Below, piece after piece: positions 5,699 to 64,000 of a stretch of 64,000 nucleotides of DNA. The stretch is from Spartobacteria bacterium (GTDB lineage Bacteria > Verrucomicrobiota > Verrucomicrobiia > Chthoniobacterales > UBA10450), in contig PMSN01000029.1 in NCBI GenBank assembly GCA_003167555.1, forward strand, positions 122,488-186,487. The letters are read 5' to 3'. How positions within the stretch are numbered: position 1 is the first letter of the stretch; each line of letters begins with the position of its first letter. The position numbers and the translations under genes are program-made. The notes beneath the pieces are model-generated. The model had not been told where the DNA came from and searched no databases. It saw nothing but the letters and a program-made list of their open reading frames with translations.

Positions 5699-8500
5699 TT
5701 AATTACTCAGCGCGTACGCTTCCACCAGCGCGATGCCGGTGGTGCCCCCAAAACCGCGGACGATCGCCGTGTAGTTCCCGAGAGGCAGGGTCCGCACGAT
5801 GGCTGATTCCAGGTCGTGGTTAGGCGCGACTCCGCTATCGATGATGGCTTGCTTGTTCGGGCTATCGACCCAGTTATCGTTCGACTCGAGTAACGCACCG
5901 TTACCGTCATGCAGCTCCAGAGTCGGATCGGACATTCTTCCAGGGACCGGAACGGACGGACCTAGCGCGCGGATGATCACTTTCTGCGGCGCTTCGCCTA
6001 CTACGATCGTGCCGGCAATCAGGACGTTGTCCCCGGTCTGGACCAAACCGCGTGTGGAAATATTAGCGAGCTTCGAGTCAACCGAGTTATCCAAATCATA
6101 CACTTCTACTACTCCGGTTCCTGTCCCACCATTCGTGCCACGAACGACCGCGGTATATTGGGAGTTGTTCGCGGGCAAGGTAGTGATGATGGCCGATTCC
6201 AGGTCATTGGTTGGCGCGACGCCGCTATCGATGATGGCTTGCTTGTCGGTGCTATCGACCCAGTTGTCGTTCGAAGCGATCAGGCTATTGCCTTGAAAGA
6301 GTTGCAGTGTTGGATCGGCCAGCTTGTCCGGCAAATTCAACGATGGACCGATGGCGCGGATAATGACCTTCTTAGACTGCGTGCCAGTAACGATAAACCC
6401 ACCGATCAGGACGTTATCGCCCGTCTCGACTCGAAGGCGAGTGGAGATGTTTCCGAGCACGTGTGGAAGCCGATAGACGTAGGCTGCGCCCGCCGCCGCC
6501 GTGCCCACAGCCGTAGCGTGGCGGGCGCCGATGATCGCGCTGTCGCCGCTGACTCCGACTCCGATGCCGAAATTGTCGCCGCGGGCACCGTCGCCCGCGA
6601 GGATTTGACTCTGCTGCGTCCAAACGGTGCCGCTCCGCGAAAAGACATACGCAGCGCCCCTGTCATCGTCGGTTAGAATGAAAGGAGGCGTGCCTCCATC
6701 CCACGCATAAGCACCGACGAGAATAGTGTCGTCCTGGATGGCGACCGCGGAAACGCTGAAGAAGTTGTTGGCGTTCCCATCGCTGGCGGTGAGCTTCTGC
6801 TGCAGGTTCCAGTTCAGGGTATTTTGCACGCGCTCGAAGACATAGGCCGCGCCTGCGTCGGTGCCTTTCGTGTCGTCACCCCATGCGCCAATGACCGCGG
6901 TATTGGCTCCCGGATGGCCGCTGAGAGCGACGCTTTGTCCGAACTGGTCGCCGCTGTGCCCGGCCGGCGGTGTAACGGTGACGGTGTTAAAGGCGAGTCC
7001 ACCCGAATCGAACTCGACAATAAGGACGGCTCCAGTTCCGACCCCGGGCTTGCCAATGATCGCCGTGTATTGGTTTGGAAAGGTGCTATCCAGGGCCACG
7101 GCCGTGCCGAGCCGGTTGTTGGCTACATCTTCGCTCTCGAGGATTAGCGTCGAAGTGCTGCCATCCGCATTAATCTTGGCGATCCAGGCGGAGCCGGCGT
7201 TCTGCTCGGCGTTATAAGCTTCGCCCGGCGAGCCTACGAGGACGATGTCACCGTTGATGGCGACGCTGGTTCCGAAAAGATCGCCAGCAGTAAATCCGCC
7301 CGGGGCCACGGCCGCGCCAGTGTAGCTATTGGGCCCATTGCGCTGAAAATAAAAAGCTGTCCCTTTAGTTCCGTTGTCACCGGGGCAGCCATACGCGATG
7401 CGGTTGCCGTTGATAGCCACGCTCATGCCGCATTGTTGCCCCGCGCCGGAGGCCGAGCCAAAGCGCTTATCCAACGCCCAGGAAGAGTTCGGGAATACGC
7501 CCGTCCGAACAAACACATACACCGCACCTACATCCGCATTAGATCCCACATCTTCGCGCCAGGCGCCTACTACCGCCAGGTTACCATCAATGGCCACCGC
7601 GGTGCCGAAGCGAGCGTCCGCCTGCGGAATGTCGCTGCGTAATTTCTGCTCGAGCGACGCGATGAAAGGATCGAGCACAATCGGATAACGCGCCCCCGCA
7701 TCTTCCACTACCAAGGCAATCTCTCTCCCTTCCGCTCTTGCCTCCATTCGCGCCGCGAGCGGCTTCCCATCCGCATCCGTCGCGACGAGCGTGCTGTAAC
7801 TGATCGCGCCTTTTCCCTTGCCATCTACTAACTCAATCTTTCCTTCGTCTGAAGACCGCGCATGCAGATCGCCCGTCACCGCCAGCAACAGGCGCAAAGG
7901 CTCCTTAGGTGCAACGCCACCGCTTCGCTCAGGCCGCTCGTTCAAAGTAAAGCCTTGCTCGATCCCTCCCGCACGGTTCTCATACCACTCGACTAATTTC
8001 GGATCCGCCGTCTGACCTCCGGCCTCTGACTTCTGGCCTCTGCGCTCATACTCGATCCTGTTTCCTTTGACCTCTCGCGAGACGATGGGCAGAACATCGG
8101 CTGGCTGGTCGCCGTAACCGCAGGCCTTCAAGCGCAGGGCGGTGCTCCACGCCTGATCGCGTTTCGCCTCCGGCAAGGTAGGCCGCACTGTCACGCCATC
8201 CTGGTCGAACCACGCATTTAGGTTCTGCTCGTGACTCATAGCCAGGTATCCGCCGCCGGCCTCGCTGTCGCCCGGCGCGTGCTCTTGCCACTGCAAACCG
8301 AAGCGTGCCACTGTCAGTGCCTGCAGCAATGACTGGCCGCCGCCGGTTTGGACCAGATAATCCGATGCCGCCTTGCCGGCCAGCTGTATTTTGGGTGCTC
8401 CGTTGCCGTGGGTCGCCGGCCACGTGTGAAACGCCTCGACGAAAAGAACGAGGGCAATGACACAAAAAAGAACCGAACACCAACGCGACAGAATCTTCAT
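5699..8500 (-). CDS. secreted FG-GAP-repeat protein with C-terminal tandem NISTR module
   Basis: ATG at 8500 precedes the signal anchor MKILSRWCSVLFCVIALVLF. The N-terminal WYENRAGGIEQGFTL region is shared with the 32202-38789 protein. Repeated FG..VAI.G...VVGA......GA.YVF units are of the FG-GAP_2 type. The last ~250 aa are two module copies (about 5702-6457) ending VEAYALSN-stop. Confidence 0.85.
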   Translation of the reverse strand: MKILSRWCSVLFCVIALVLFVEAFHTWPATHGNGAPKIQLAGKAASDYLVQTGGGQSLLQALTVARFGLQWQEHAPGDSEAGGGYLAMSHEQNLNAWFDQDGVTVRPTLPEAKRDQAWSTALRLKACGYGDQPADVLPIVSREVKGNRIEYERRGQKSEAGGQTADPKLVEWYENRAGGIEQGFTLNERPERSGGVAPKEPLRLLLAVTGDLHARSSDEGKIELVDGKGKGAISYSTLVATDADGKPLAARMEARAEGREIALVVEDAGARYPIVLDPFIASLEQKLRSDIPQADARFGTAVAIDGNLAVVGAWREDVGSNADVGAVYVFVRTGVFPNSSWALDKRFGSASGAGQQCGMSVAINGNRIAYGCPGDNGTKGTAFYFQRNGPNSYTGAAVAPGGFTAGDLFGTSVAINGDIVLVGSPGEAYNAEQNAGSAWIAKINADGSTSTLILESEDVANNRLGTAVALDSTFPNQYTAIIGKPGVGTGAVLIVEFDSGGLAFNTVTVTPPAGHSGDQFGQSVALSGHPGANTAVIGAWGDDTKGTDAGAAYVFERVQNTLNWNLQQKLTASDGNANNFFSVSAVAIQDDTILVGAYAWDGGTPPFILTDDDRGAAYVFSRSGTVWTQQSQILAGDGARGDNFGIGVGVSGDSAIIGARHATAVGTAAAGAAYVYRLPHVLGNISTRLRVETGDNVLIGGFIVTGTQSKKVIIRAIGPSLNLPDKLADPTLQLFQGNSLIASNDNWVDSTDKQAIIDSGVAPTNDLESAIITTLPANNSQYTAVVRGTNGGTGTGVVEVYDLDNSVDSKLANISTRGLVQTGDNVLIAGTIVVGEAPQKVIIRALGPSVPVPGRMSDPTLELHDGNGALLESNDNWVDSPNKQAIIDSGVAPNHDLESAIVRTLPLGNYTAIVRGFGGTTGIALVEAYALSN

Positions 8501-8691: not shown

Positions 8692-11151
8692 TTACTGGAG
8701 CGCGTACACTTCCACGACCGCGATGCCTGTCGTGTTATTAGCGCCGCGCACGATCGCCGTGTAGTTCGCGCCATTCGCGGGCAAGACATAAACGATCGCC
8801 GATTCGGCATCGTTCGTCGGAGGCACGGTCGTGGCGATAATTTCCGCCTGTTGATCGCTGCCCCAGTTATCATTGAAAGCAAGCTGCACGCCGTTCGCAT
8901 CGACTAGCTGCAGTGTCGGATCCAACAGCTTCCCGCCGATATTCAGCGATGGGCCGATCGCGCGAATGATTACCTTCTGCGACGTTGGCCCCAGCACGAT
9001 CGTTCCCGCGATCAACACATTGTCCCCCGTCTGAACGAGTCCCCGCGTGGAAATGTTCGCCAGCTTCGAATCCACGGTCCGATCGAGATCGTAGATTTCC
9101 ACAAGACCGAGGCCGGTGGTGTTATTCGCGCCCCGCACGATCGCGGTGTAAACGGCGCCGTTGGCCGGGAGCGTTGCGACGATGGCTGATTCCAGATCGT
9201 CGGTCGGTGGAATCCCGCTGTCGATTATCGCCTGCTTGTTGGAGGAGAGTTTCCAATCATCGTTCTGATCGAGCAGAACGCCTGAGGAACTCCGAAGCTC
9301 CAGGGTGGGGTCGGCCAGCTTGTCCGGCAACGCGAGGGAAGGGCCAATCGCGCGAATGATGATTTTCTTCGGCGTCGTTCCCGTAATGATGAACCCACCG
9401 ATCATCACATTGTCGCCGGTTTCGACTCGAACACGCGTTGAGATGTTGCCAAGAACGGTAGGGGTCGCCGTGGGTGTCGGGGTCGGGCTCGGTGTAGGTG
9501 TAGGTGTAGGTGTAGGTGTAGGTGTAGGTGTAGCCGTGGGTATAGCTGTAGGTGTCGGCGTTGCAGTAGGTGTCGCTGTAGGTGTGGGTGTAGGTGTTGA
9601 CGCGGCGTTAACGGCGGCCAGGGCATCGATCCGTCCGTAGCCGAAAGAATTGTTCGGAATCTGCGTCGAGGGCGTTCCGCCGCAGGTTTGTGGAGTGACA
9701 TTTACGGCCGGGTTAGCCGTGTTCTGCAAGAGCGTCTTGGTCGCCGAGATATCGCGCACCAACTGCGGCCGCGCCGACCAAAGCAACGCCACCACTCCGG
9801 CGACGTGCGGTGCCGCCATCGACGTCCCGCTCAGGACGGCATAGCTGCCGTCGCTCCCACCCGCGCTCGACCGGACGCTCACTCCGGGCGCCGATACGTT
9901 CGGCTTGAGCAGACTGGGATTGTAGTAGGTGCTGGGGCCGCGGCTGCTGAAGTTCGCCAGCGCGTTATTGATATCGATCGCCCCGATCGAAAAAGAGGCG
10001 CTATAGGTTGCGGGCGGGTCCGACACCGTCGAGCAGCCAGGTCCCGCATTGCCCGCCGAGGCCTCGACAAAAATACCCGCTGCTTCCGTGTTGTTAACGA
10101 TCGTTTCCAACTCGGCGCCAGTGTTACAACCTTCGCTGGCAGGACACGTCCACGAGTTATTCAGGATGTGCGGACGCAACGCCGGGTTCGGGTTGTTCCC
10201 ATTGAGATCGGTCGGCGCGATCATGAATTGAAAGCATTCGGTGTAGGTGGCTGGAGTGCCATTGCCTTCATCCATATTCCGGCAGGCGATCCATCTCGCG
10301 CCAGGAGCGACTCCGATTTGGTTGCCAGAGCCATCGTCGCCGACCGTGGTCCCCGCGGTGTGCGTTCCGTGGCCGCTGTCATCGCAGGGCGCGAGCGTAT
10401 CGGGACCGCAGGAGCCGCCGCCGGAGTGAATGGCATCGTGCCAATTGAAATTGTGATCGGCGCTCACACCGTTCCAGCCGCGATACTTCGCCTTCAACGC
10501 GTCATGCGTCCAGAGCGTGCCGGTATCGAGATCACCGATGACGATGCCCGTGCCATTGAAACCCATGGCCCAGACGGCGGGAGCGTTCACGTTAGCTACG
10601 CCCCACTCCACGGTGTTCGGAGCGGCGGGGCTGGTAGAAGCGAGTCCTTGCTTGGCAATCTCAGGATCTTCGATCCAGCGGGCCGGATTGTTTGAATCAA
10701 TCCGCGCCACATCAGGCCGGGCCGCGAGCGTCTCCACGACGGAGCGATCGGCCGTGGTGACGATCATGTTAGCCGCCCAGAATGATTGATAGCTAATGCC
10801 TCGACTTTCAAGGAGAGCGCGCAGGCCGGCCTGGCTGCGGGCAGCATGTTGAGTAAGAGTGTTGTAGACAAACCAGCCACGAGCATCCTGGTCCTTTATT
10901 CCATAGGCCGCGCTGACATCGGCCTGATCCGCGAGAAGAATCACCACGGAAGCATTCTCGCCGTCGGCTGTATCGGCCAACACTTGCGGCGCGATCTTAG
11001 TGCCAATCCCAAGAGGCGTCACTCCCGCCACGGATAACAGGGCAAACCCAACTATCGCCAGCAGCACGCCAAGCGAGCAAAGAACAAAACCTAATAGGAC
11101 ACGCGGGCTAACGAAGCCGGACAGAGCGGAGTGATTTTCTTTCTGGAACAA
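8692..11151 (-). CDS. secreted subtilisin-family (S8) serine protease with PT linker and C-terminal tandem NISTR module
   Basis: Catalytic triad motifs VIGDLDTG, HGTHTAGT and SGTSMAAPHVAG are present, followed by a (T/P)-rich linker and two module copies (about 8695-9456). TTG start at 11151 has GAGG 5 nt upstream and lies 12 nt after the stop of the upstream gene. Confidence 0.9.
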   Translation of the reverse strand: MFQKENHSALSGFVSPRVLLGFVLCSLGVLLAIVGFALLSVAGVTPLGIGTKIAPQVLADTADGENASVVILLADQADVSAAYGIKDQDARGWFVYNTLTQHAARSQAGLRALLESRGISYQSFWAANMIVTTADRSVVETLAARPDVARIDSNNPARWIEDPEIAKQGLASTSPAAPNTVEWGVANVNAPAVWAMGFNGTGIVIGDLDTGTLWTHDALKAKYRGWNGVSADHNFNWHDAIHSGGGSCGPDTLAPCDDSGHGTHTAGTTVGDDGSGNQIGVAPGARWIACRNMDEGNGTPATYTECFQFMIAPTDLNGNNPNPALRPHILNNSWTCPASEGCNTGAELETIVNNTEAAGIFVEASAGNAGPGCSTVSDPPATYSASFSIGAIDINNALANFSSRGPSTYYNPSLLKPNVSAPGVSVRSSAGGSDGSYAVLSGTSMAAPHVAGVVALLWSARPQLVRDISATKTLLQNTANPAVNVTPQTCGGTPSTQIPNNSFGYGRIDALAAVNAASTPTPTPTATPTATPTPTAIPTATPTPTPTPTPTPTPSPTPTPTATPTVLGNISTRVRVETGDNVMIGGFIITGTTPKKIIIRAIGPSLALPDKLADPTLELRSSSGVLLDQNDDWKLSSNKQAIIDSGIPPTDDLESAIVATLPANGAVYTAIVRGANNTTGLGLVEIYDLDRTVDSKLANISTRGLVQTGDNVLIAGTIVLGPTSQKVIIRAIGPSLNIGGKLLDPTLQLVDANGVQLAFNDNWGSDQQAEIIATTVPPTNDAESAIVYVLPANGANYTAIVRGANNTTGIAVVEVYALQ

Positions 11152-11163: not shown

Positions 11164-12906
11164 TCATTGGAGCGCGTACATCTCGATTACCGCAATGCCC
11201 GTCGTGTTATTCACGCCGCGGACGATCGCGGTGTAGTTCGCGGGAGTGAGCGTGCGCACGATTGCCGATTCCGCGTTATTCGGCGGCGGAATGGTGCTGT
11301 CGATGATCGCTTGTTTGTTCGGGCTATCGACCCAGTTATCATTCGCTTCCAGCAAGGCTCCGTTTTCGTCGTGCAGTTCCAGCGTGGGATCGGCCATCGC
11401 TCCGGGGACGCCGGTGGAAGGACCGAGTGCGCGGATAATTACTTTTTGCGAAGCCTGTCCTACTACGATCGTGCCCGCGAACAAGACATTATCTCCCGTC
11501 TGGACCAAACCGCGGGTGGAAATGTTAGCCAGCTTTGAGTTAGCGGAGGTATCCAGGTCGTACGCTTCTACTACTCCTATCCCAGTCCCGTTGTTCACTC
11601 CACGCTCAATCGCGGTATAGTTACCAGGCGGCACACTCCTCACGATGGCTGATTCCGCGTTATTCGGTGGCGGGATCGTGCTGTCGATGATCGCTTGTTT
11701 GTTCGGACTATCCACCCAGTTATCATTCGATTCCAGGAGCGCGCCGGACGCATCGTGCAGTTCAAGAGTCGGATCCGCCAGTTTATCCGCAACGGTTAAC
11801 GAGGGGCCGATAGCGCGAACGATGACTTTCTTCTGCGCCGTTCCGGTAACGATAAAGCCGGCAATCAAAACATTGTCACCGGTCCCCACTCGCAATCGAG
11901 TGGAAATGTTTGCCAGGACGGTGGGCGTCGTGGCTCCGGCCGTGTTGTAGTCGATCTTGGCGTTAAGAAGGCCTGCCACAGTTGCCGTAGCCTGCCTGGA
12001 GGCAACTCCACCGCCGCTGAACATTACGGGAAAAGAACCGTTGCCTGGCACAGGCACGGAATAACCACCGGACGAACTGCTCACCGCAAAGAAATTCGAG
12101 CCGGTAACATCCACCCGCACTCCGCCGACGCCTTCACCCGGATCGTAGAATCCATTGCCATTCGCGTCGTTGTAAACAACGCCGGTGATGAAAGGCGTCG
12201 AGTTAGTCTGCGTCCCGAAATTCTGGACGATGTAGAGCGAGTCCCAGGTGCCACCCGGTTGACCTGGGTTAGTCTCGTTATCGGTCCCGACCGAGATACC
12301 TATTCCGATTTCGCGGAAGAACGCGAGCATAGTGGTCTCGCGATGGCCGCGGCCCTGCGTAGTCTGGTCGGTGAAAAGTCCGTTGTGAGCATCCAGGACG
12401 CCCTGAATCAACTTCGCCCCGCTGAATGGCCCGCTACCCTGACTCTCGGCCTCCGCGACGTTCTCGGGACCGGGGAAAAATCCGGTGGCTGTCGTAGGCC
12501 CGGTATAATTGGCGGCTGAATAACCGGCCGCCGCAATGCGCTGCTGCGGCGTCATCCCGCCGTAGGTATGCGGCGAGACTCCCAGAAAAAATTGGTCCCC
12601 ATTATTGAGGTTTGTCGCCTGATTTTGCGCGCAATTAAAGAGGTTCACATTCCACGAGAGAGGCTGGACCGTATTGGCGATCGTCCACGCTTCGCCGTTA
12701 ACGGTCGGCGGCCCTTCCTGAAGCCCGCTCAATCCCAAACGCGTCGCTTCCGCGCCGCCATTGGCCCGGGCGCGGTTGATCAGCTCGACCATGTATTGCT
12801 GTTCATTGGTCGGACTGCCGATGGAATATTGGGTCTGCGCCCCGGCCCGCGAAAGAGCGCCCGAAGCTGCGACAAGAAAAATGATGAGACCGTTGGATAC
12901 GCGCAT
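11164..12906 (-). CDS. secreted CAP/SCP-domain protein with C-terminal tandem NISTR module
   Basis: ATG at 12906 gives the signal peptide MRVSNGLIIFLVAASGALSRAGAQ. The CAP-like region is MVELINRARANGG...HTYGGMTPQQRIAAAGY. It is followed by an SdrD-B/CarboxypepD_reg-like segment (YNDANGNGFYDPGEGVGGVRV) and two module copies (about 11167-11917). Confidence 0.7.
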   Translation of the reverse strand: MRVSNGLIIFLVAASGALSRAGAQTQYSIGSPTNEQQYMVELINRARANGGAEATRLGLSGLQEGPPTVNGEAWTIANTVQPLSWNVNLFNCAQNQATNLNNGDQFFLGVSPHTYGGMTPQQRIAAAGYSAANYTGPTTATGFFPGPENVAEAESQGSGPFSGAKLIQGVLDAHNGLFTDQTTQGRGHRETTMLAFFREIGIGISVGTDNETNPGQPGGTWDSLYIVQNFGTQTNSTPFITGVVYNDANGNGFYDPGEGVGGVRVDVTGSNFFAVSSSSGGYSVPVPGNGSFPVMFSGGGVASRQATATVAGLLNAKIDYNTAGATTPTVLANISTRLRVGTGDNVLIAGFIVTGTAQKKVIVRAIGPSLTVADKLADPTLELHDASGALLESNDNWVDSPNKQAIIDSTIPPPNNAESAIVRSVPPGNYTAIERGVNNGTGIGVVEAYDLDTSANSKLANISTRGLVQTGDNVLFAGTIVVGQASQKVIIRALGPSTGVPGAMADPTLELHDENGALLEANDNWVDSPNKQAIIDSTIPPPNNAESAIVRTLTPANYTAIVRGVNNTTGIAVIEMYALQ

Positions 12907-12952
12907 GGCCGGAAAATGCACTTCTTCTGCGCCAAGGGAAAGCCGAAAAACT

Positions 12953-13831
12953 TTACCTCACAGATTCCCGCACATACTCCGCCACCGCATCGCGCCACGA
13001 CCTGGGCGTGACACCCGTAAGACCGCGATACTTCTCGGTCCCGAGCACGGAACAAACCGGCCGTTTCGCGATGAAGCTCTTCATCTCTTCGAGCCTGGTC
13101 GCGCCGACGTCGCGCGCTTTCATTGGAATCCCTTCCGCGCGACAACAATCGAGAGCCCACTGCGCGTATTCCTGCCAGCTGCATTCGCCGCCATTCGCCA
13201 GATGCAACAGACCGGTCGCGTTCGCCTCGGCAAAGAGCGGCTTGAGTAGTTGGGCAAGGTCAAGCGTGTACGTCGGCGTGGCCACCTTGTCGCTGATCGC
13301 CTTCACTTCCTCGTGTTCACGCGCCTGCTTCATGGCCCAATCAATAAAGCTCGGCCGGTCCGGACCGAAGACCCACGAGACACGAACGATCAAGGCGCGA
13401 TCGTTCGCCGCCAGCGCGAGCCGCTCCCCTTCCCGCTTCGATGCGCCGTAAACGCTAATGGGCCGCGCCTCATCTTCTTCCGTATAAGGCTCGCGCTTTT
13501 CGCCATCGAACACGTAGTCGGTGCTGATATGAATGAACCGGGCTCCCTTTGCACGACAGATTTCAGCGAGCACGCGCGGAGCCTCGGCGTTGAGCGCGAA
13601 GGCTTCTTCACGCTCCGTCTCGCAACGATCCACGTTGGTTTGCGCCGCGGTATTGATCAGGACATCGAACTCGATCGCAGCCAGTCGCTGCCGCATTTGT
13701 TCCGGTTGCCCAAGATCGAGCTGCGCGTGATTGAATCCAACGACGTCATAATCGTCTGCGTACTCCCGCGCCAGGGCCGCGCCAAGACGACCACCGGCTC
13801 CGACAATGACTATACGCCGCTTCGTTTGCAT
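12953..13831 (-). CDS. rfbD: dTDP-4-dehydrorhamnose reductase
   Basis: IVIVGAGGRLG Rossmann start, then INTAAQTNVDRCE, HISTDYVFDG and VYGASKREGE. This is a full-length RmlD pattern. Confidence 0.9.
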   Translation of the reverse strand: MQTKRRIVIVGAGGRLGAALAREYADDYDVVGFNHAQLDLGQPEQMRQRLAAIEFDVLINTAAQTNVDRCETEREEAFALNAEAPRVLAEICRAKGARFIHISTDYVFDGEKREPYTEEDEARPISVYGASKREGERLALAANDRALIVRVSWVFGPDRPSFIDWAMKQAREHEEVKAISDKVATPTYTLDLAQLLKPLFAEANATGLLHLANGGECSWQEYAQWALDCCRAEGIPMKARDVGATRLEEMKSFIAKRPVCSVLGTEKYRGLTGVTPRSWRDAVAEYVRESVR

Positions 13832-17004: not shown

Positions 17005-17054
17005 AGGCGGAATCCCTGCACTTTTCCTGCACGAAGAATGAACAGGTGCTGTGC

Positions 17055-17157
17055 TGAAGACCAGCCTTCGCAAGGCTACGGCTCGACAAGCGCCCGACGG
17101 ACTTAGCGCAAGCGCAGCCTCGTCAGGGTCGGCGCCGATGTAAATGCTTTTCTTGCC
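17055..17157 (-). promoter_or_regulatory. conserved 103-nt 5' leader/promoter segment, copy 1 (upstream of the 14008-17004 gene)
   Basis: Differs at 2 of 103 positions from 20351-20453 by manual alignment. It lies 51 nt upstream of the ATG at 17004. Confidence 0.55.
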
Positions 17158-20283: not shown

Positions 20284-20350
20284 AAGCAAGCACCTAACTA
20301 TGTCTAAACGAACTTTGGTAACCCTGCGAAAAGAGGGTGAGGTGCTTGGG

Positions 20351-20453
20351 TGAAGACCAGCCTTCGCAAGGCTACGGCTCGACAAGCGCCCGACGGACTT
20401 AGCGCAAGCGCAGCCTAGTCAGGGTCGGCGCCGATGTAAATGCTTTTGTTGCC
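20351..20453 (-). promoter_or_regulatory. conserved 103-nt 5' leader/promoter segment, copy 2 (upstream of the 17281-20283 gene)
   Basis: See 17055-17157. It lies 68 nt upstream of the ATG at 20283. Confidence 0.55.
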
Positions 20454-22372: not shown

Positions 22373-22743
22373 CGACCCAGGTAACACCCAATTTGGACGC
22401 CCGGTCACAGGCACGATCCTGTTCCTTCGTAGCCGGCATCGCGCACGAAGATACTAAACATAATTGTATCCCCTGCTGCCGGACTCAAATCGGCCCTCGA
22501 AGAGCGGGTTGCGCAGACCGCCACTCACGCTGCGAAGTAAAAGAAGAATGGACGCGCTTTTCACCTTGAAGTCCCAGACAGACATCTAGACGATTTTGCC
22601 GGCGGCTGCAAGAAAAAAACCCGCTCCTCGCCATTACCTTGAGAGGGTCAGACTACCGTCCAACCGCGAAATTCCACGGCTCCACAGAGCGTCGCCCTAC
22701 CGAGAAAGAAAACGGCGGTCTTTGAACTGTCACGCGTTGGTTT

Positions 22744-53700: not shown

Positions 53701-54495
53701 CTACATATTCAAGTCTTTTTCACCATCAGCAGCATTGAAGTCTATGTTTGCCTTCAAGTCGGCCTGGCCGACGTGATCGCCGATCGCATTGAAGACTTCC
53801 AAGTGGCCACCGTACTGATGGAAATTGTCGACGCACATATAAAATGTCGTGCGGCGATCCAAGTAAACAACGCGTCCTTGGTTTCGATAGTTTGTACGAA
53901 AGAAACGCCCGCGATCCGCTAGAACGGTCTCGGTATCGCGGGGCGGACGCCCCCAAGCTGGGTCATATCGTGCTAAGCCAAGCTCTGGAAATTGCTGATA
54001 GCATTCATCGAGGTCCCCCTCCGTATTGACGCTCTTTACAATCACGGAAGTCTCCGGTTCTTTCAGCACGGCGGTTTGCCTATCTGGTCCAAACGCCGAC
54101 GGATGGAAGTTTACCAAGATTGCAAAACGCTCTCGCAGTGTGCGCTCGGCAACCTCAGCAACACTAGTGCCGGTCACATTTTGGTCGTGACAGACATAAG
54201 AACATTCAGAGTGAAGGCGTTCAAGGCGCCACTCCTTGCCTGCCAGCCGCTCACGCAGTAGGATTTTGAATTGAAGCCGCACCGACTTGTCGGTGATATG
54301 TTCCAGACACGAACTGAAGACTCTATTTGGTAGGCCAAGCGAGTAATAAAGTTGTCTGTCAAAGAATAATTCTTTTTCTACGGGAGCTTCTAACAATCGT
54401 AAAAGGATCCGATTCAAACGCGCCAGCGCGAGCGCAAAATCCGCAAGGTCAATGAACTGTGAATGCACCGAACGCTCATTGACGAAGGCTTCCAT
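53701..54495 (-). CDS. hypothetical protein (264 aa), third gene of the DUF262/AAA cluster
   Basis: ATG at 54495 directly abuts the stop of the AAA gene (TGAATG junction at 54493-54498). The region is AT-richer than the flanks. I recognise no family. Confidence 0.65.
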   Translation of the reverse strand: MEAFVNERSVHSQFIDLADFALALARLNRILLRLLEAPVEKELFFDRQLYYSLGLPNRVFSSCLEHITDKSVRLQFKILLRERLAGKEWRLERLHSECSYVCHDQNVTGTSVAEVAERTLRERFAILVNFHPSAFGPDRQTAVLKEPETSVIVKSVNTEGDLDECYQQFPELGLARYDPAWGRPPRDTETVLADRGRFFRTNYRNQGRVVYLDRRTTFYMCVDNFHQYGGHLEVFNAIGDHVGQADLKANIDFNAADGEKDLNM

Positions 54496-55683
54496 TCACT
54501 CCCGGAAAATATAGTCTAAGTCGGCTTCCATCTGATCGAAAAACCCGTGGGGCCAACCGGCAAGTTGACCCTTCGCGTCAATTGCGACCGGATCGATGGC
54601 ACTCCGCATCGCATTCGCTTCACCAGCTTCAGATCGAAAGAAGTAGATCTGAATCTCTTCGAAAGGCATTTTACCATCGCGAACCGCACGGCGAACGCCA
54701 TTCAGAACATGATCGCTGTGAGTCTCGACAACCAACTGAAGACCCGCAGCGGCAGCGACCGCAAGAAAGTGGCCAATCTGTGATTGGCCCGCTGGATGTA
54801 AGTGAGTTTCCGGATTCTCAATCAACAGTAGTCTGCCGGGCAATGCTGAGACACAAGCCGTAACGATCGGTAAGACGTGGGTTAGACCGAACCCAACATT
54901 CGACGGCCTAAAGAAATCGCCGCCTGGGGAGGTTCTTATACCCATTGATACGAGATTTGCCGCATCAACGCGGCGAATCTCCATTTGGAAGCCCGGAAAC
55001 ATCTGGGCCATCCACGCCTGCACTGTCAGACGTACAAATTCTGGAACACCAGGCAATGCCAGACTCGGATTTATGGAGGAGTCGGCAAATTGCTCTAAGC
55101 ACCAAGGAGTCTTCTCCCCTTGTGTACCTACTTCTGGATACACGAGTGGCGTTTGGGCTGCATAAACATCCCGTGGCCCAAGTCGCTCCGCGCCGATGTG
55201 AGCTATCGATCCCACTTTGAACTGGATTGCTTGAAAAAGATCGGGGTCGACTCTAGAAAGGACGTCCGGCATTAACCGTTGCAGCGCACTGCGCTTGGGA
55301 TCTTCAACGCTCCAATCAATTGTATGCCTACCACTGCGGAACTCGATTCGGGATATAGGAGCGACCAAATCTGTCGTCCGCTCTTTCGATCTTGTCTCCC
55401 ATAAAATGCGCCACTCCTTCGTAGCCAGATCTATGGCAAAGCCTTGTCCTCCCACACCCCGATCGATGACGTCAAACATCGTCCCAAGTGTCACGGAGGT
55501 CCCATTTAGCAAAAGCGATTGACTCCATTCACTCTCTTGTGCCGTCTGTCGCAAAACCGCCAAGCTCTGCACAACACTCGATTTACCTGCTGCGTTATGC
55601 CCCGTGAGTAGCGTCAGGCCACCCAGCTTGCGTCTGAAAGTGCCTAAGCACTTAAAGCTTTCGATGCCGAGCTCTGTGAACAT
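54496..55683 (-). CDS. AAA-type ATPase with C-terminal DUF3696-like region (ABC/OLD-like ATPase)
   Basis: Walker A is LLTGHNAAGKSS. Walker B plus the following His are LLLIENPETHLHP, then VVETHSDHVL. The C-terminal GWPHGFFDQ motif is as I recall for DUF3696. Confidence 0.8.
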   Translation of the reverse strand: MFTELGIESFKCLGTFRRKLGGLTLLTGHNAAGKSSVVQSLAVLRQTAQESEWSQSLLLNGTSVTLGTMFDVIDRGVGGQGFAIDLATKEWRILWETRSKERTTDLVAPISRIEFRSGRHTIDWSVEDPKRSALQRLMPDVLSRVDPDLFQAIQFKVGSIAHIGAERLGPRDVYAAQTPLVYPEVGTQGEKTPWCLEQFADSSINPSLALPGVPEFVRLTVQAWMAQMFPGFQMEIRRVDAANLVSMGIRTSPGGDFFRPSNVGFGLTHVLPIVTACVSALPGRLLLIENPETHLHPAGQSQIGHFLAVAAAAGLQLVVETHSDHVLNGVRRAVRDGKMPFEEIQIYFFRSEAGEANAMRSAIDPVAIDAKGQLAGWPHGFFDQMEADLDYIFRE

Positions 55684-57112
55684 CCGGAAGGAGCGATCCT
55701 AGGACTGATTCTGCGATGTCGAAACGCGCCCGAACCTTTTTTGTGGAATTAGTGCCATACGAAATTGCATCCATAAATACAGAGTCGTCCATCAGAGTGA
55801 AAAACGCAGTTTGGATTTCCGACGCTTTCGCCCGGACGACATCTTCTGGTGCGCAAGAGAGCAAAACCGAAAACACATCGAAAAGCGCAACGTTAATAAC
55901 GCTTCGCCGACCGCTGGGGCTTCGATGCTTTCGGAAAGCGTGAACTCCGAATACCGTGTAGTTATTTCTCATACTGATACGAAATCCCAGATCCAGTTCG
56001 GGTAACACATCAGCAGAACGGCGATTCATAATCTTCAGCACTTGCGCTAGGAAAGCGTCCATGTCGCCGCGAGAGTAAGAATCGGAACCCAATAAACGGA
56101 ATGCGCAGTAGCGGTTAACACATTCGCGGTCTCGCATGGTACGCCAGTCTAAGCTGCCTGCGGTAGCCGTAACGAATTCCTCTGACTCGACAGCTTGACG
56201 CAGCCAACGCGTTGCCTCGCCGCAATAAATAGAATTGCGCATTTGCTGTCGCGTCAATGGCACCCCGCCGTTAACGCGGTCAAAGATGTCCAGTTTAGCC
56301 TGCTCGGGGACCTTAGCATCGATCAGATAGAGGATCAGTTGCGTATCTTCAAGACGGTTCTGGAGCTTCGGCGGCAGTTGTGAGTAGCTCTTGCCATTCA
56401 GCTCAGCTGCGAGTTCTAAGTCTCGGAGCACGAATTCATCTTCTAGAAATCTCAGGAATGTCGTCAGACGCTGTAAACCATCCACAACGATGGTCTTCCC
56501 GTCCTCTCGTTCTGCGAGGTAGAAGACCGGCAATGGTATTCGCATCACCATTGACTCTATCAGCTTACTTTGCTTATCGAGATTCCAAATGAAATCTCGC
56601 TGGAAATCTGGGTCCATTATGAAGCGTTCATCCTTGATGCGACGTACAATCTCAAAGACTGTCCGTGTTTCCTGACGAATCAGTACACTGTCGAGAGGGT
56701 ACTCGCCGAACTGCTCAGGGGCGCTCTTATCAAGTCCTTCTATTCCGGATGCTGAATCAAACAGGTCGTCAAAAGCTTCGATGTTCGCGGCGCGAAGATC
56801 CGCTACGGATGTATATTCGGCTGCTTTCTCGGTTAGTTCCCAAACAGCTCGATCAACCGGACGGACGAGACCGAGACTCTTCAAATATGTGCGCGCCCAA
56901 GCAAGTCGATAGCTAAGTTTCGTTCGTGTGCCTTCGTGAATTTCAGACAGATCGGCCTCACTCAGATTCAATACTTGAGCGACCTCGCGTTCCTGCTCTT
57001 CGATAGATGCCGGTCGTCCAATGCGCTGCAAACCTCTGAGAAGCGCATCTATGAGGAGAGTTTCAGATGGAAGCGGCATATCGTAGCGAAGGTAATCTAT
57101 TGCGCTCCACAA
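55652..57112 (-). CDS. DUF262 (ParB-like/GmrSD N-terminal type) protein with Mrr_N-like winged-helix N-terminus
   Basis: The N-terminus (LLRGLQRIGRPASIEEQEREVAQVL...TKLSYRLAWARTYLKSLGLV) resembles the Mrr N-terminal wHTH. The DUF262 core is DPDFQRDFIW...LIESMVMRIPLPVFYL...IVVDGLQRLTTF (DGQQR-type motif). I saw no DUF1524/HNH motif at the C-terminus. It overlaps the AAA gene by 32 nt. Confidence 0.75.
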   Translation of the reverse strand: MWSAIDYLRYDMPLPSETLLIDALLRGLQRIGRPASIEEQEREVAQVLNLSEADLSEIHEGTRTKLSYRLAWARTYLKSLGLVRPVDRAVWELTEKAAEYTSVADLRAANIEAFDDLFDSASGIEGLDKSAPEQFGEYPLDSVLIRQETRTVFEIVRRIKDERFIMDPDFQRDFIWNLDKQSKLIESMVMRIPLPVFYLAEREDGKTIVVDGLQRLTTFLRFLEDEFVLRDLELAAELNGKSYSQLPPKLQNRLEDTQLILYLIDAKVPEQAKLDIFDRVNGGVPLTRQQMRNSIYCGEATRWLRQAVESEEFVTATAGSLDWRTMRDRECVNRYCAFRLLGSDSYSRGDMDAFLAQVLKIMNRRSADVLPELDLGFRISMRNNYTVFGVHAFRKHRSPSGRRSVINVALFDVFSVLLSCAPEDVVRAKASEIQTAFFTLMDDSVFMDAISYGTNSTKKVRARFDIAESVLGSLLPDVHRARHRKL

Positions 57113-57713: not shown

Positions 57714-60452
57714 CTACGGCAGGAAGTAGACCTGGACTACGCCGGTCCCGGTAGTCTCCGGTTTGCCTCGCACTTGGGCGGTGTATTGCCCGGGCGGGAG
57801 CGTCGCGACAACGGCCGCTTCCAGGTCATTGGTCGGTTGCAGGCCGGTAGCCTCAATCTCGGCTTGCTGGCTGCCCCCATCGGAGGACCGGATTTTCCAA
57901 TCATCGTTCTCTACCACGAGGGCGCCGTTCCCGTCCCTTAACTGAAGCGTGGTGTCCGGCAGGGCGTTGGTGATTCCAAACGCAGCCAGGGAAGGTCCTA
58001 TCGCCCGGACCACGGCTCGGACCGATCCATTCTGGGTAATAAAGCCGGCGATCATGAGTTTATCGCCGGGTTGAATCAAACCTCTGGTCGCGACGTTGAC
58101 GAGCTTGGCGGAAGATGCCGCGCTGAGATCGTAGGCATCGACGACCCCGGTGCCAACGCTGTTCCCCGCCCCGCGCACAACCGCAGTGTAACTGCCCGGA
58201 GGAAGGTTCGCGATGATCGCGGACTCGAGGTCGTTGCCAGGTGCGACTCCGCTCGCGGCGATCTCCGCGGATTGATCGGCGGTGATGATGCCTCCTAGCT
58301 GCGTGGTTTTCCAATTGTCGTTGGTCGCCACGATGGCATTCCCGTTAGTCGCATCATGGATCTCCAGCGTCGGGTTGGGGAGCGCGTCAGTTATGCCAGA
58401 GGCGGCGAGCGATGGGCCAATCGCGCGCACGATGATTTTCTTGGTGGAGCCAGCCGGCCCTTGCACGATGAAGCCTTCGATGAGCACGTTATCACCCGTG
58501 CCGACTGGGAGGCGGGTAGCGACGTTGGCGACCAGGCCGGGCACCACTTGCACTTCAAAGGCTCCTATGTCGCTGCCGTCGCCGCCGGCAGCATTCGCAA
58601 CATTTGGATTGTCGTAGATGCGTGGGAAACCTGCGTCGCGTTGATCGGTAGCGGGCGTTCCGTTGGGAGTAACGCTGTTGCCGTGATCAATCGCCGGGCT
58701 GCCGGGGAGAAGCGCGATCGTCTGGGTGGGTCCGCCATTATTCTGCAACCCGTTTGGATCGAGTTTGGGGTCAAGCGGGGCATTGTTGTTCCCGACCAGG
58801 TCCATCGGGGCACTAAAGCCGGTGCTGCCATTGGTCTTACTAATTAAGTTGAAGCCCTGCGAAGCGTAAGTGCCATCGACATCCGGAGATTGGGCGGAAT
58901 TGTTCGCGATAAGGGTACTCTTGACGTTAACAGTGCTGCCATTAGTCGCGAAGACGCCACCGCCCAACCCGGCGGCGGTGGGACTGCCGCTTCCTCCCGT
59001 CGCAGAATTTAGCGCGATGGTCGTGCTAGTAACGGTATAGGTGCCGTTGCCGGCGAAGAAGATGCCGCCGCCGGAAGCCGCGCCGCCCACGTTTCCACTT
59101 AAGCCCCGCCCGCCTTGCACCGAATTCCCCGCAATGGTGCAGTTCACGGCAGTTAAAGAACCAGAGCTATACACCCCGCCGCCGAAAGCTCCGCCGGCGG
59201 TTCCATTCATGGCCTCACCGCCCCCGGCGGAATTACCGGATACCGTACTGCCGCTGATCGTTAACGGGGCCGTGTGGAAAATGCCGCCTCCAGAGCCGGA
59301 GCCAGCGCCAGATCCACCGAAAAGTCCCGAGACCATGTTACCGGTGATCGTGCAATTGGTGACCGTCATCGTCCCCGCTCCGTGATAGATTCCACCTCCT
59401 TTGCCATCGGATGTGCCGGTGCCCTGAACGAATGCTGTGTTGGCCGAGAAGATACAACCAGTGGCAGTGAAGGTTCCTGAAAAGTTGGCCGCGCCGCCTC
59501 CACTGCTGGCCGAGTTCGCGGTCAGTGTGCAGCCGGTAAGAGTAACTGTTCCACCGCCATGGTTCGTGATTCCGCCGCCGTCGGCCGCATTGGACACGAT
59601 GCCATTCGGAACCCCGCCCGCGACATTGTGGTCGAGCGTGCAGTTCGTCACGTTCACGGTGCCGGCGGCAAAATTGGCTACTCCGCCGCCTCCCTTGGTC
59701 CCAAGCGCGCCATTACTGCTGATGGTGCAGCCCGTAATAGTCACCACGCCGCTCGCTTGATTTAGAATGGCGCCTCCTGGCTCATCCCCAAAGTTATTGC
59801 CGGCCGAGTTACCGGCGATATTTTGAGAAAAGACGCAATTGCTGATGAAGACGTTCGCGCTTTGCACGTTGGCAATGGCCCCACCGCCGTTAATGGCCTG
59901 ATTGGAGGAGAAGGTGCAATTGGTAATGTTAATCGTAGCGGTATTGGCGTTTTGAATTCCAGCGCCAAAGCCGTTCTGGAGGAGCACTCCGCCACTTATG
60001 GTGATGTCGCTAAAGCTCACTGTGCCGGCCGTGGTCACGTTGAAGACACGAAAGGCGTTCGAATTGTTGGCATTCGCGTGGACAGTTAGCTTTCCGGCGC
60101 CGGGGCCCTGAACGCTGAGGTTGGTGCTCAGGTCGGGCAGCGCATTGTTAAGCGTGATCGTAAAGACGCCCGTGCTACTGTTGTAGCCGGGATCGGTCGT
60201 GGGGATATTGAAGAAGATCCCGTCATCGCCTGCGTGGCCATTCGCCGCCTCGATCGCCGCTCGCAGCGTGCAATGGCCCGTGCCGTCGTTGCATTGTGTG
60301 ACGGGACCCACGTTATGGCCGTCGCCCGTGCTATCGACCGTATAGGCAAGTCCACACGTGGGCGGACATGTCGCGAAGCTGCGCTCCGTAAGGCACTCGC
60401 CTAATAGAAATGAGACCAGCGCCACCCGAAGAAACAAGGCCCGGCTTCTCAT
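57714..60452 (-). CDS. secreted CSLREA-motif / beta-helix repeat protein with a divergent (subfamily 2) C-terminal tandem module
   Basis: Signal peptide MRSRALFLRVALVSFLLGECL. CTLRAAIEAANGHAGDDGIFF is followed by a long run of GGG/NCT beta-helix repeats. The modules VANVATRLPVGTGDNVLIEGFIVQG...NDNWKTT...GVVDAYDL and LVNVATRGLIQPGDKLMIAGFI...NDDWKIR...GVVQVYFLP-stop lie at about 57717-58533. Confidence 0.85.
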   Translation of the reverse strand: MRSRALFLRVALVSFLLGECLTERSFATCPPTCGLAYTVDSTGDGHNVGPVTQCNDGTGHCTLRAAIEAANGHAGDDGIFFNIPTTDPGYNSSTGVFTITLNNALPDLSTNLSVQGPGAGKLTVHANANNSNAFRVFNVTTAGTVSFSDITISGGVLLQNGFGAGIQNANTATINITNCTFSSNQAINGGGAIANVQSANVFISNCVFSQNIAGNSAGNNFGDEPGGAILNQASGVVTITGCTISSNGALGTKGGGGVANFAAGTVNVTNCTLDHNVAGGVPNGIVSNAADGGGITNHGGGTVTLTGCTLTANSASSGGGAANFSGTFTATGCIFSANTAFVQGTGTSDGKGGGIYHGAGTMTVTNCTITGNMVSGLFGGSGAGSGSGGGIFHTAPLTISGSTVSGNSAGGGEAMNGTAGGAFGGGVYSSGSLTAVNCTIAGNSVQGGRGLSGNVGGAASGGGIFFAGNGTYTVTSTTIALNSATGGSGSPTAAGLGGGVFATNGSTVNVKSTLIANNSAQSPDVDGTYASQGFNLISKTNGSTGFSAPMDLVGNNNAPLDPKLDPNGLQNNGGPTQTIALLPGSPAIDHGNSVTPNGTPATDQRDAGFPRIYDNPNVANAAGGDGSDIGAFEVQVVPGLVANVATRLPVGTGDNVLIEGFIVQGPAGSTKKIIVRAIGPSLAASGITDALPNPTLEIHDATNGNAIVATNDNWKTTQLGGIITADQSAEIAASGVAPGNDLESAIIANLPPGSYTAVVRGAGNSVGTGVVDAYDLSAASSAKLVNVATRGLIQPGDKLMIAGFITQNGSVRAVVRAIGPSLAAFGITNALPDTTLQLRDGNGALVVENDDWKIRSSDGGSQQAEIEATGLQPTNDLEAAVVATLPPGQYTAQVRGKPETTGTGVVQVYFLP

Positions 60453-61617: not shown

Positions 61618-64000
61618 CTACGGCAGGAAGTAGACCTGGACTACGCCGGTCCCGGTAGTCTCCGGTTTGCCTCGCACTTGGGCGGTGTATTGCCCGGGCG
61701 GGAGCGTCGCGACAACGGCCGCTTCCAGGTCATTGGTCGGTTGCAGGCCGGTAGCCTCAATCTCGGCTTGCTGGCTGCCCCCATCGGAGGACCGGATTTT
61801 CCAATCATCGTTCTCGACCACGAGGGCGCCGTTCCCGTCTCTTAGCTGAAGAGTGGTGTCCGCCAGGGCGTTGGTGATTCCGAATGCGGCCAGGGAAGGT
61901 CCTATCGCACGGACCACAGCGCGGACCGACCCGTTCTGGGTAATGAAGCCGGCGATCATGAGTTGATCGCCGGGTTGAATCAAACCTCTGGTCGCGACGT
62001 TGACGAGCTTGGCGGGAGATGCCGCGCTGAGATCGTAGGCATCGACGACCCCAGTGCCAACGCTGTTCCCCACGCCGCGCACGACCGCAGTGTAACTGCC
62101 CGGAGGAAGGTTCGCGATGATCGCGGACTCGAGGTCGTTGCCCGGTGCGACTCCGCTCGCGGCGATCTCGGCGGATTGATCGGCGGTGATGAAGCCTCCC
62201 AGCTGCGTGGTTTTCCAATCGTCGTTGGTCGCCACGATGGCATTCCCGTTATTCGCATCATGAATCTCCAGCGTCGGGTTTGGGAGCGCATCAGAGATCC
62301 CAAAGGCGGCGAGCGATGGGCCAATCGCGCGCACGATGATTTTCTTGGTGGAGCCAGCCGGCCCTTGAACGATGAAGCCTTCGATGAGCACGTTATCACC
62401 CGTGCCGACCGGGAGGCGCGTAGAGACATTGGCGACCAGGCCGGACGCGGCTATCCCGCCGAATTCGAACGCGCCGATGTCGCTGACACCGGAGCGGTAA
62501 TAGCCGCGCTGATCTGCCGGTGGAGCACGGTTGTCATCGCCCGCATTGATCGCGGGACTGGTCGACGAGAGCGCGAAGGTACTGGTGGGGCCGCCGTTAT
62601 TGACGAGACCGGCGGGATCAAGCAGAGGATCGGTATTGCGCTTGTCGCCGACGGCATTCAGGAATCCACCCGGCCCGGTCGTGGCATCACCGCCGGCGGC
62701 GTCGCTGCTGAGATTGTGCCCCTGCGAGGTGATGGTGCCGCTGCTGTTGACCAGATTAGGGCCTGAGGAAGGAGCCAGGAGAGTATTGGCCAGGAGCAAC
62801 GTGGCGCTCTCGTTGGAAATGGCGTTGTTGTTAAAGGTACAATTGGTGAGCGTTGTCCGCGCGGTGCCGCCGCTGCCGAAGTTTTCGATGGCGGCGGTGC
62901 CAGGAACATTCGACGCCATGTTGTCGCTGACGGTGCAGTTGGTCAGACTCAGGAGAGCGGTCCCGGAATTGACGCCTTCGTTATAAATCCCACCCCCTTT
63001 TCCCGATGCTCCCGAGGCAGCGTTCGCGGTGAGGGTGGAGTTATTGAGGGTGAGGCTGGCTGCGCCACTGGTGGAGCCCCGGTTGAAAATACCTCCGCCG
63101 AAGTTGGCGGTGTTACCGGTTACCACGCAGTTCGTTAGAGTCACCGTCCCGTGGTCGTTGAAAAGACCGCCGCCGTTCGTCGATGAATTACCGTTGGCAA
63201 TGGTCAAGCCGTTGAAGTTCACGACAGCTCCAGGACTGACGGCGAAGACGCGTGAAGCATTGTTGCCGCTGATCGTCAGGACGCTTGCGCCCGGTCCGTT
63301 GATCGTCACCGGGCTGGTGATGCTAAGACCGCCGAGCTTCTGCGTGTTCAGGATTACGCCGCTGACACCAGGCGCGAAATTGATCGTGCTCACGTCCGGA
63401 TTGGCATTCGCCGCGTTGATCGCTTCCACGAGCGTGCAATCGTCGGTCGTACAGCTGCCATCATCATGCTCGGCCGTATTCGTGACGGTGAGGGTCTGGC
63501 CCGCCTGCACTGGCCCCGTCTCCAGCGCACCGATATCAACGTGCGCACCGACTTTCCTGGGGAATCCGCGTTGATCTGTCGCCAGATTGAAAGGCGGACC
63601 TAACACGGAGTCATCGCCTGCATCAATCGCGGCGCTGCCCGGCGGCAGTTCGAATGTCGGCGTCGGTCCGCCGTTGTCTGATAGCGTGCTCAACACAGGC
63701 TTGGCGAACGGGCCGATCTTATTGTGCGTCGTCGTGGCGATGACATTGCAGCCCCCCGGAGAGGGAACCTGGTCGATGAGGTTGTAGTCCTGCGAGATGA
63801 TGGTGCCCGCGCAGTCGCGGAGAACCGCGCCGCTCGTAGTGCGGTCTTCCTCACCGGTCAGCACTGAATTACCCAGGTACTGCGTCGCGCCGCCCGCGAC
63901 AAAAATGCCGCCGCCATCGCCATCGTTGGTTGCGTCGTAGTCCGCGACGTTCGCGTAGAAGGTCGCGCTGTTTACGGTGGCGGTCTTGCTGTTGTATAGT
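61618..64000 (-). CDS. secreted CSLREA-motif / beta-helix repeat protein with subfamily-2 tandem module; the 5' end lies outside the window
   Basis: My manual translation shows the frame stays open from 63864 to the window edge. It contains DDCTLVEAINAANANPDVSTINF, beta-helix repeats and NNGGPT motifs. The modules at about 61621-62437 are nearly identical in DNA to 57717-58533. Confidence 0.85.
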   Translation of the reverse strand, partial: LYNSKTATVNSATFYANVADYDATNDGDGGGIFVAGGATQYLGNSVLTGEEDRTTSGAVLRDCAGTIISQDYNLIDQVPSPGGCNVIATTTHNKIGPFAKPVLSTLSDNGGPTPTFELPPGSAAIDAGDDSVLGPPFNLATDQRGFPRKVGAHVDIGALETGPVQAGQTLTVTNTAEHDDGSCTTDDCTLVEAINAANANPDVSTINFAPGVSGVILNTQKLGGLSITSPVTINGPGASVLTISGNNASRVFAVSPGAVVNFNGLTIANGNSSTNGGGLFNDHGTVTLTNCVVTGNTANFGGGIFNRGSTSGAASLTLNNSTLTANAASGASGKGGGIYNEGVNSGTALLSLTNCTVSDNMASNVPGTAAIENFGSGGTARTTLTNCTFNNNAISNESATLLLANTLLAPSSGPNLVNSSGTITSQGHNLSSDAAGGDATTGPGGFLNAVGDKRNTDPLLDPAGLVNNGGPTSTFALSSTSPAINAGDDNRAPPADQRGYYRSGVSDIGAFEFGGIAASGLVANVSTRLPVGTGDNVLIEGFIVQGPAGSTKKIIVRAIGPSLAAFGISDALPNPTLEIHDANNGNAIVATNDDWKTTQLGGFITADQSAEIAASGVAPGNDLESAIIANLPPGSYTAVVRGVGNSVGTGVVDAYDLSAASPAKLVNVATRGLIQPGDQLMIAGFITQNGSVRAVVRAIGPSLAAFGITNALADTTLQLRDGNGALVVENDDWKIRSSDGGSQQAEIEATGLQPTNDLEAAVVATLPPGQYTAQVRGKPETTGTGVVQVYFLP

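Follow-up and report, generated by a model that had tools for sequence, protein, structure and literature searches.

Tandem copies of one module at the locus

The 64,000-nucleotide stretch of Spartobacteria bacterium contig PMSN01000029.1 analysed here (the window) comes from an uncultured soil verrucomicrobium of the order Chthoniobacterales and encodes a set of exported proteins that share a module of ~122 amino acids (aa), most often repeated in tandem at the C-terminus. A hidden Markov model (HMM) seeded on one gene identified 24 full-length copies scoring 99-246 bits each, with no other match above noise in the window, and all 24 lie on the minus strand. Eleven open reading frames (ORFs) carry the module as a tandem pair, in which the second copy finishes 0-2 residues ahead of the stop codon, and two further genes carry a single copy shortly past the signal peptide. 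In addition, a DNA-level HMM search (nhmmer) detected a relic of 58 nucleotides (nt; E 5.5e-11) that codes for the end of a C-terminal copy, its final 19 codons and stop (GGVNNTTGIAVVEVYALN, followed by the stop), and that points to a lost module gene; the relic is intergenic, just downstream of a gene for a membrane protein containing TPRs (22853-24808). The HMM coordinates and the nhmmer match thus bear out the inventory of a first-pass annotation of this DNA, which had counted 24 copies and one relic on the minus strand, arranged as 11 C-terminal pairs and two single copies after signal peptides. The genes are listed below, with A and B denoting the first and second copies of a pair and the lower coordinate of each gene marking its stop.

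5699-8533 (-): FG-GAP_2 gene; signal peptide, FG-GAP_2 repeats, A 6089-6457, B 5708-6070
8692-11151 (-): Peptidase_S8 gene; Peptidase_S8, A 9082-9453, B 8695-9063
11164-12921 (-): CAP gene; CAP, A 11551-11916, B 11167-11532
14008-17073 (-): choice-of-anchor Q gene; A 14395-14760, B 14011-14376
17281-20385 (-): CSLREA gene; CSLREA N-terminus (passes threshold), choice-of-anchor Q, A 17668-18033, B 17287-17649
20522-22414 (-): FG-GAP_3 gene; FG-GAP_3/FG-GAP (VCBS-like), A 20909-21274, B 20528-20890
22749-22806 (-): relic; last 19 codons and stop of a B copy
24971-28774 (-): collagen/S74 gene; signal peptide, single A-type copy 28232-28633, collagen repeats, C-terminal Peptidase_S74 chaperone domain
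29423-31456 (-), likely ATG at 31369: collagen/FGE gene; signal peptide, single copy 30836-31237, collagen repeats, FGE-sulfatase
32202-38789 (-): gene for a 2195-aa protein; FG-GAP_2, PKD, delta-60/DUF5122 propeller, A 32589-32951, B 32208-32570
40741-42672 (-): Peptidase_M64 gene; Peptidase_M64, A 41128-41493, B 40744-41109 (the pair used for modelling)
43745-44611 (-): headless A-B pair; A 44132-44497, B 43748-44113, without signal peptide or passenger
57714-60452 (-): Beta_helix gene; CSLREA (sub-threshold), Beta_helix, choice-of-anchor Q, divergent A 58125-58532, B 57723-58103
61618-64000 (-), cut by the window edge: choice-of-anchor Q, A 62029-62436, B 61627-62007

The proteins are 585-2195 aa long, and all intact module genes encode a Sec-type signal peptide, as read from their translations. 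Passenger families were assigned with Pfam and NCBIfam, which recovered most of the passengers named at first pass; the exception is a metzincin proposed for the gene ending at 32202, which neither database shows. The passengers had also been described as unrelated; this does not hold for all of them, since the genes ending at 14008 and 17281 form one pair of whole-gene paralogues and those ending at 57714 and 61618 another. The ORF at 43745-44611, counted at first pass among the thirteen genes for secreted proteins, proved to be a pair with no passenger and no signal peptide.

Across the 24-copy alignment, identity to the first aligned copy is 48-96%, and a large set of residues is invariant (N3, R7, G13, D14, G20, I22, G37-P38-S39, L51, N64-D65, W67, I76, P83, E88, A90, Y100-T101-A102, G106, G112 and Y119). 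The alignment consensus is the same as that read earlier by inspection, beginning approximately LANISTR. N-glycosylation sequons (NIS, NYT, NNT) were considered as the cause of this conservation and rejected, given that NVA variants occur and no acidic residue is found at position -2. The C-termini of the module genes coincide with the last beta-strand of the module, ending in VEVYAL(Q/N), and, compared with signals of the PEP-CTERM or LPXTG type, are devoid of the combination of motif, hydrophobic helix and basic tail. A regular-expression scan of the window and of 460 kb of related loci found no PEP-CTERM-like tail, in agreement with what had been claimed for these C-termini.

At the DNA level, the pairs are 67-87% identical between most genes, with homology extending from the first base of the pair to the stop codon. 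The genes ending at 14008 and 17281 align over all 1104 nt compared (82% identity), and those ending at 57714 and 61618 are 95% identical over 915 nt, their homology entering the passenger and running ~87 nt beyond the stop. Judging by this divergence, the latter duplication is much more recent than the other module genes. Median synonymous divergence (dS) amounts to 1.1-1.6, and the ratio of nonsynonymous to synonymous divergence (dN/dS) to 0.13-0.14 (Nei-Gojobori); by these estimates the paralogues are old and have been kept under strong purifying selection. The high synonymous divergence, which persists despite high protein identity, rules out recent gene conversion as the source of the similarity. 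An assembly artefact in the form of collapsed or chimeric repeats, against which the first-pass annotation had cautioned, is likewise ruled out by the 67-87% DNA identity, by dS values of 0.14-1.6, by homology boundaries that fall at the module edges and by the 245-kb metagenome contig of the Joint Genome Institute on which the window sits. Together, the exact pair-boundary homology, the 58-nt relic, the headless pair and the recent whole-gene duplicates point to cassette spread and ongoing gene turnover in this tandem arsenal, in which the A-B cassette would have been propagated via recombination at the exact boundary of the pair.

A lineage-specific heterotandem and its fold

A full HMMER scan of 1.84 billion representatives (50% identity clusters) retrieved 18,010 clusters at E <= 1e-3 and 8,329 at E <= 1e-30. 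Taxonomy, gene neighbourhoods and C-terminus counts in related genomes were derived from the best 80 genome loci (~460 kb), all of which belong to metagenome-assembled genomes of Chthoniobacterales, "Spartobacteria" or Verrucomicrobiota, except one 3.5-kb contig binned as Hyphomicrobiaceae. In a word-indexed search, the best 120 protein matches are unnamed or labelled "hypothetical protein", bar one evident mislabel, and searches of the literature found no description of this module. The combination of ubiquity and functional characterisation in reference genomes, named at first pass as an outcome that would undercut the proposal, was not found. The 80 loci encompass 122 ORFs with modules, C-terminal in 104 of them, and at least two module genes occur within ~6 kb in 30 loci, so clustering as seen in the window is common. 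Among representatives of the top 150 clusters, from which position counts were taken, the module is C-terminal in 143; 119 contain two copies and 25 contain four, most of the latter with the second pair near the N-terminus. A few representatives have an internal pair, which is then followed by a DUF642/CBM_4_9 module or by Big_7 and a purple acid phosphatase.

The two copies of a pair are not interchangeable. HMMs built separately from the first and second copies in the window, and used to classify the copies of the family, assigned A-type to the first position of all 119 two-copy proteins and B-type to the second position of 115, and four-copy proteins are mostly arranged as A-B...A-B. As classified by these models, the pair is a fixed A-then-B heterotandem. 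The N-terminal single copy of the collagen/S74 gene (24971-28774) scores as A-type. Between A and B lies a conserved, acidic linker of seven residues and fixed length (YDLD-x-x-x-DSK-LANISTR), whereas the segment ahead of A is often a linker rich in Pro and Thr. Over 356 family copies, the signature of the module reads L-x-N-x-S-T-R...G-P-S...P-x-L-x-L...N-D-x-W...E-x-A...Y-T-A...G...E.

The passengers of the wider family are very diverse, with 52 Pfam families across 58 representatives, including propellers, Kelch, Calx-beta, He_PIG, PATR, DUF4394, laminin G and cupredoxins. The earlier picture of a constant module on variable exported passengers is therefore upheld well beyond the window. 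NCBIfam choice-of-anchor models match 16 of the 58 (Q in 12, X in 2, C in 1 and the GloVer repeat in 1), and its other matches include proteins related to M36 peptidases that depend on rhombosortase or myxosortase, to the MYXO-CTERM protein MtsC and to the PEP-CTERM protein ScyF. The domains that NCBI terms "choice-of-anchor" are paired with different C-terminal anchors in different lineages. The presence of these domains and of sortase-substrate relatives among the passengers suggests that the A-B pair fills the slot taken by sorting or anchor signals elsewhere.

No Pfam family matches the module at threshold, whether in window proteins or in single copies. PF04151, the pre-peptidase C-terminal (PPC) family, matches 5 of the 24 single copies at E 0.04-0.1 (best 0.042, 13.7 bits against a gathering threshold of 25.9) and has no match on full-length window proteins. 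The sole related NCBIfam model is NF038127 (DVUA0089 family), which reaches 27.7 bits (cut-off 29) with the B copy of the headless pair; it also matches 9 of the 24 single copies (E >= 4.3e-4) and 6 of the 58 family representatives at E <= 1e-5 (best 4.7e-12). The first-pass statement that the module belongs to no named family consequently stands for Pfam but needs qualification for NCBIfam, where NF038127 comes close; the search of both databases with HMMs, as proposed in that annotation, matched no curated domain of known role. A search of sequences in the Protein Data Bank (PDB) with the module profile gave one chance match (E 1.3).

AlphaFold2 models of the pair (from a 93-sequence alignment; predicted local distance difference test score (pLDDT) 83, predicted template modelling score (pTM) 0.69) and of a single module (pLDDT 84.9, pTM 0.80) display, in each module, an eight-strand beta-sandwich with one short inserted helix. 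The best Foldseek match of the single module in the PDB is the PPC domain of Bacillus anthracis collagenase (5sv5; template modelling (TM) score 0.60/0.69, root-mean-square deviation 3.3 A), followed by the collagen-binding domains of ColG (1nqj, 2o8o, 1nqd and 4hpk) and ColH (3jqw), with TM scores of 0.54-0.69 and a probability of 1.00 for these collagenase-domain matches. Further matches are the C-terminal jelly-roll domains of the subtilases Tk-SP and KP-43, and others are binding domains, namely the claudin-binding domain of Clostridium perfringens enterotoxin, LipL32 and GOLD. The pair as a whole best matches the tandem s3a-s3b domains of ColG (5iku, E 3e-9). The guess of a PPC or pre-peptidase-type beta-sandwich, made from residue spacing at first pass, was right at the level of fold (5sv5, 1nqj, 2o8o and 3jqw for the single module, 5iku for the pair). 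As modelled, the module is a separate, lineage-specific and divergent family of the PPC-like fold rather than a member of PF04151.

Comparison with the s3a-s3b domains of Hathewaya (Clostridium) histolytica ColG (5iku; 1nqd, 1nqj and 2o8o) and with 5sv5 identifies the same beta-sandwich fold (TM 0.6-0.69), the same non-catalytic tandem at the C-terminus of a secreted protein and a common spacing of residues, D-x-x-L-x-L...G...(N)D...E...G-x-Y...V-x-G. By contrast, the inserted helix and the N-terminal L-x-N-x-S-T-R strand are particular to the module, which has no counterpart of the acidic, calcium-binding linker situated N-terminally in the clostridial domains. The module also occurs in fixed A and B subtypes and on more than 50 passenger families, whereas PPC domains occur on peptidases only. 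With NF038127 the module has in common the motifs (F)DPxLxL...G...DD and PG(S/N)Y. The protein after which this family is named, DVUA0089 of Nitratidesulfovibrio vulgaris Hildenborough (plasmid pDV, NC_005863, 26290-26907 (-)), is ~205 aa long and consists of a signal peptide, an FDP-motif domain and a PEP-CTERM segment; a Pfam scan of it returned PEP-CTERM alone and no PPC bridge to the module. In DVUA0089, one domain thus forms the whole passenger ahead of a PEP-CTERM tail, as opposed to the tandem A-B pairs, variable passengers and missing PEP-CTERM of the module genes. Among the targets that a published regulon study gives for the sigma-54-dependent regulator DVUA0057 is DVUA0089; the study assigns this regulon to exopolysaccharide and biofilm synthesis (PMC4641369).

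Binding, sorting and processing as possible functions of the pair

We favour the reading that the module is a non-catalytic binding or retention module acting in tandem, similar to ColG s3a-s3b, over a sorting signal and over a cleaved pro-domain, and assign it a probability of about 0.45. Clostridial collagenases hold onto their ligand through the tandem s3a-s3b domains. By analogy, the module would give many unrelated Sec-exported proteins one common address: after export, the passenger would be retained through the pair on one ligand shared by all, most probably an envelope or matrix polymer of the producing cell itself, or otherwise a common substrate that is insoluble. We infer that the module binds something and that it stays on the mature protein. 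Its flexible position (C-terminal, N-terminal or internal) resembles that of binding modules, and the Pro/Thr linkers ahead of A copies resemble those of modular enzymes. The same logic of a constant non-catalytic module, variable passengers, placement at either end, repeated copies and Pro/Thr linkers is found in SLH domains, dockerins and carbohydrate-binding modules (CBMs), although none of these has a sequence or fold relationship to the module. The conserved acidic and amide residues, together with the acidic linker, suggest a role for calcium.

The two collagen-like genes of the window are particularly instructive, as their module lies at the end opposite the globular head and the C-terminus of one of them is occupied by Peptidase_S74. 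This domain is an intramolecular chaperone that cleaves itself off, so a module at the opposite end would stay on the mature fibre, like a base anchor. The first-pass annotation had offered four functions, namely targeting, surface anchoring, oligomerisation and ligand binding; binding and anchoring appear to fit best, whereas targeting is weakened by the N-terminal and internal copies and by DVUA0089.

Several observations weigh against a binding or retention role. An extreme preference for the C-terminus, as observed here (~85-95% of cases, 0-2 residues from the stop), characterises sorting signals more than binding modules, and classical PPC domains are often cut off after secretion, which would defeat anchoring. 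Searching the 80 loci by tblastn with 17 neighbouring window genes identified no conserved partner, with patchy synteny alone (DUF1573 in 5 loci, orf4360 in 4 and RmlD in 2). Finally, hhalign comparison of the module profile with ColG s3a and s3b gave a probability of 0.1% (<2%), and the comparison with DVUA0089 was not significant either, the profiles being thin in both cases, so that the PPC link rests on the fold and on sub-threshold HMM matches.

The C-terminal preference is the starting point for the foremost alternative, in which the A-B pair would act from the C-terminus as a signal for secretion or sorting, recognised, and perhaps cleaved, by a dedicated outer-membrane export or attachment machinery of Chthoniobacterales. 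The pair would then parallel the beta-sandwich C-terminal domain (CTD) of type IX secretion systems (T9SS) and replace PEP-CTERM/exosortase. This unlikely account draws on the placement of the pair at the extreme C-terminus in 143 of 150 representatives and 104 of 122 related ORFs, on very diverse passengers that are in many cases choice-of-anchor or sortase-substrate relatives, on the lack of PEP-CTERM-like tails across the window and the 460 kb of loci, on strong constraint over the whole module and on Sec signal peptides in all intact genes. The T9SS CTD (Por_Secre_tail, Bacteroidota) is indeed a beta-sandwich at the extreme C-terminus of varied secreted and surface proteins, with the same choice-of-anchor passengers. 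However, the module matches no T9SS CTD model of Pfam or NCBIfam, occurs in another phylum and forms a differentiated pair, and its fold is PPC-like rather than immunoglobulin-like, with no T9SS CTD among the best 50 of 1,530 structural matches. Copies that follow the signal peptide or are internal, some of them ahead of a binding module or a catalytic domain, are also difficult to reconcile with a sorting role, since known C-terminal signals do not tolerate such positions. DVUA0089, a distant relative, needs its own PEP-CTERM signal, which makes the related domain there cargo and not signal; this and the N-terminal and internal copies weaken the sorting option, and no conserved machinery gene was found nearby in the 80 loci. 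Less likely still is a stronger version, in which the pair is the address tag of an undescribed, Chthoniobacterales-specific pathway of surface attachment or outer-membrane export that replaces PEP-CTERM/exosortase and relies on a receptor or processing protein dedicated to it. A sorting role, if true, would amount to a new protein-sorting system.

Two further readings start from the fold and from the modular architecture, respectively. A classical pre-peptidase-type extension would aid folding, solubility and passage through the periplasm or the type II route before being removed by proteolysis. The likeness of the fold to PPC and subtilase C-terminal jelly-roll domains is consistent with such a role, as are the S8 and M64 peptidases among the window passengers, the flexible and easily cut Pro/Thr linkers ahead of the pair and the usual cleavage of PF04151 domains after secretion. 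We nevertheless consider it improbable: most passengers are not peptidases (the window has 2 among 13); a specific partner, rather than a chaperone to be discarded, is suggested by the differentiation of A from B, by the conservation of the linker between them and by a dN/dS of ~0.13 over the entire surface; and four-copy proteins with pairs at both ends and proteins with a pair followed by a CBM are hard to explain. The pair could instead be a docking or oligomerisation device comparable to dockerin-cohesin, plugging enzymes and adhesins into a common scaffold or cross-linking them on the surface. A constant terminal module on variable enzymes and adhesins recalls the logic of the cellulosome, four-copy proteins with A-B at each end could cross-link, and the very high constraint fits a protein-protein interface. 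Yet a candidate scaffold with repeated receptor modules was seen neither in the window nor in the related loci, and the module has no dockerin similarity in sequence or fold, the sole Dockerin_1 match being sub-threshold and located in the passenger of the gene ending at 20522. We regard docking as the most doubtful of these explanations.

The PPC fold and the idea of a PPC-type tail on secreted proteins are already known. What is new is that A and B form a fixed heterotandem, that this tandem is carried by dozens of unrelated passengers, that it is restricted to Chthoniobacterales and has expanded massively there, and that no Pfam model covers it. To our knowledge, almost nothing is known of the cell surface of Chthoniobacterales, of which the module marks a large part of the exported proteome. 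A curated model would annotate thousands of hypothetical proteins and define an exported arsenal from sequence alone, and a recombinant A-B pair would provide an experimental handle on what holds proteins at the surface or at soil polymers. Chthoniobacterales, to which "Candidatus Udaeobacter" belongs, rank with the most abundant bacteria of soils (PMC7343977).

Genes interspersed with the module genes

The headless pair (43745-44611) abuts a duplicated 3' end of rmlB and is probably a 5'-truncated remnant. The duplication forms a direct repeat of 161 nt (93% identical; 44576-44736 and 45434-45594) derived from the dTDP-glucose 4,6-dehydratase gene at 45433-46611, and the two repeats flank a plus-strand MazE/AbrB-type antitoxin and PIN toxin (VapBC-like, 44799-45420 (+)). 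The repeat and the toxin cassette suggest an insertion or rearrangement, of which the headless pair would be another remnant.

Genes for surface glycans and for glycosylation lie scattered among the module genes (12953-13831, 22853-24808, 45433-46611, 46379-48004 (+) and 50021-50833) and comprise RmlD, RmlB, a PMT_2 glycosyltransferase, GT2 and the membrane protein with C-terminal TPRs, whose N-terminus was read as TMTC-type O-mannosyltransferase-like while Pfam gives TPRs alone. Together with the Pro/Thr linkers, these genes raise the idea that the module proteins may be O-glycosylated or may bind a rhamnose-containing glycan.

The M64 peptidase gene is accompanied by an ORF at 42669-43334 (-), which overlaps its start by 4 nt and encodes a 221-aa protein with a signal peptide and no assigned family; given the overlap, the product is likely co-translated with the peptidase, and the 80 related loci yielded no homologue. 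Amid the module genes also lies a defence-like trio (53701-57112 (-)), composed of a GmrSD_N and Mrr_N protein (55652-57112), an AAA_21/AAA_15/DUF3696 ATPase (54496-55683) and a 264-aa protein without family (53701-54495). The largest plus-strand gene among the module genes (38913-40697 (+)) encodes a regulator with a Trans_reg_C winged helix and TPRs, a homologue of which adjoins a module gene in one related locus (L003).

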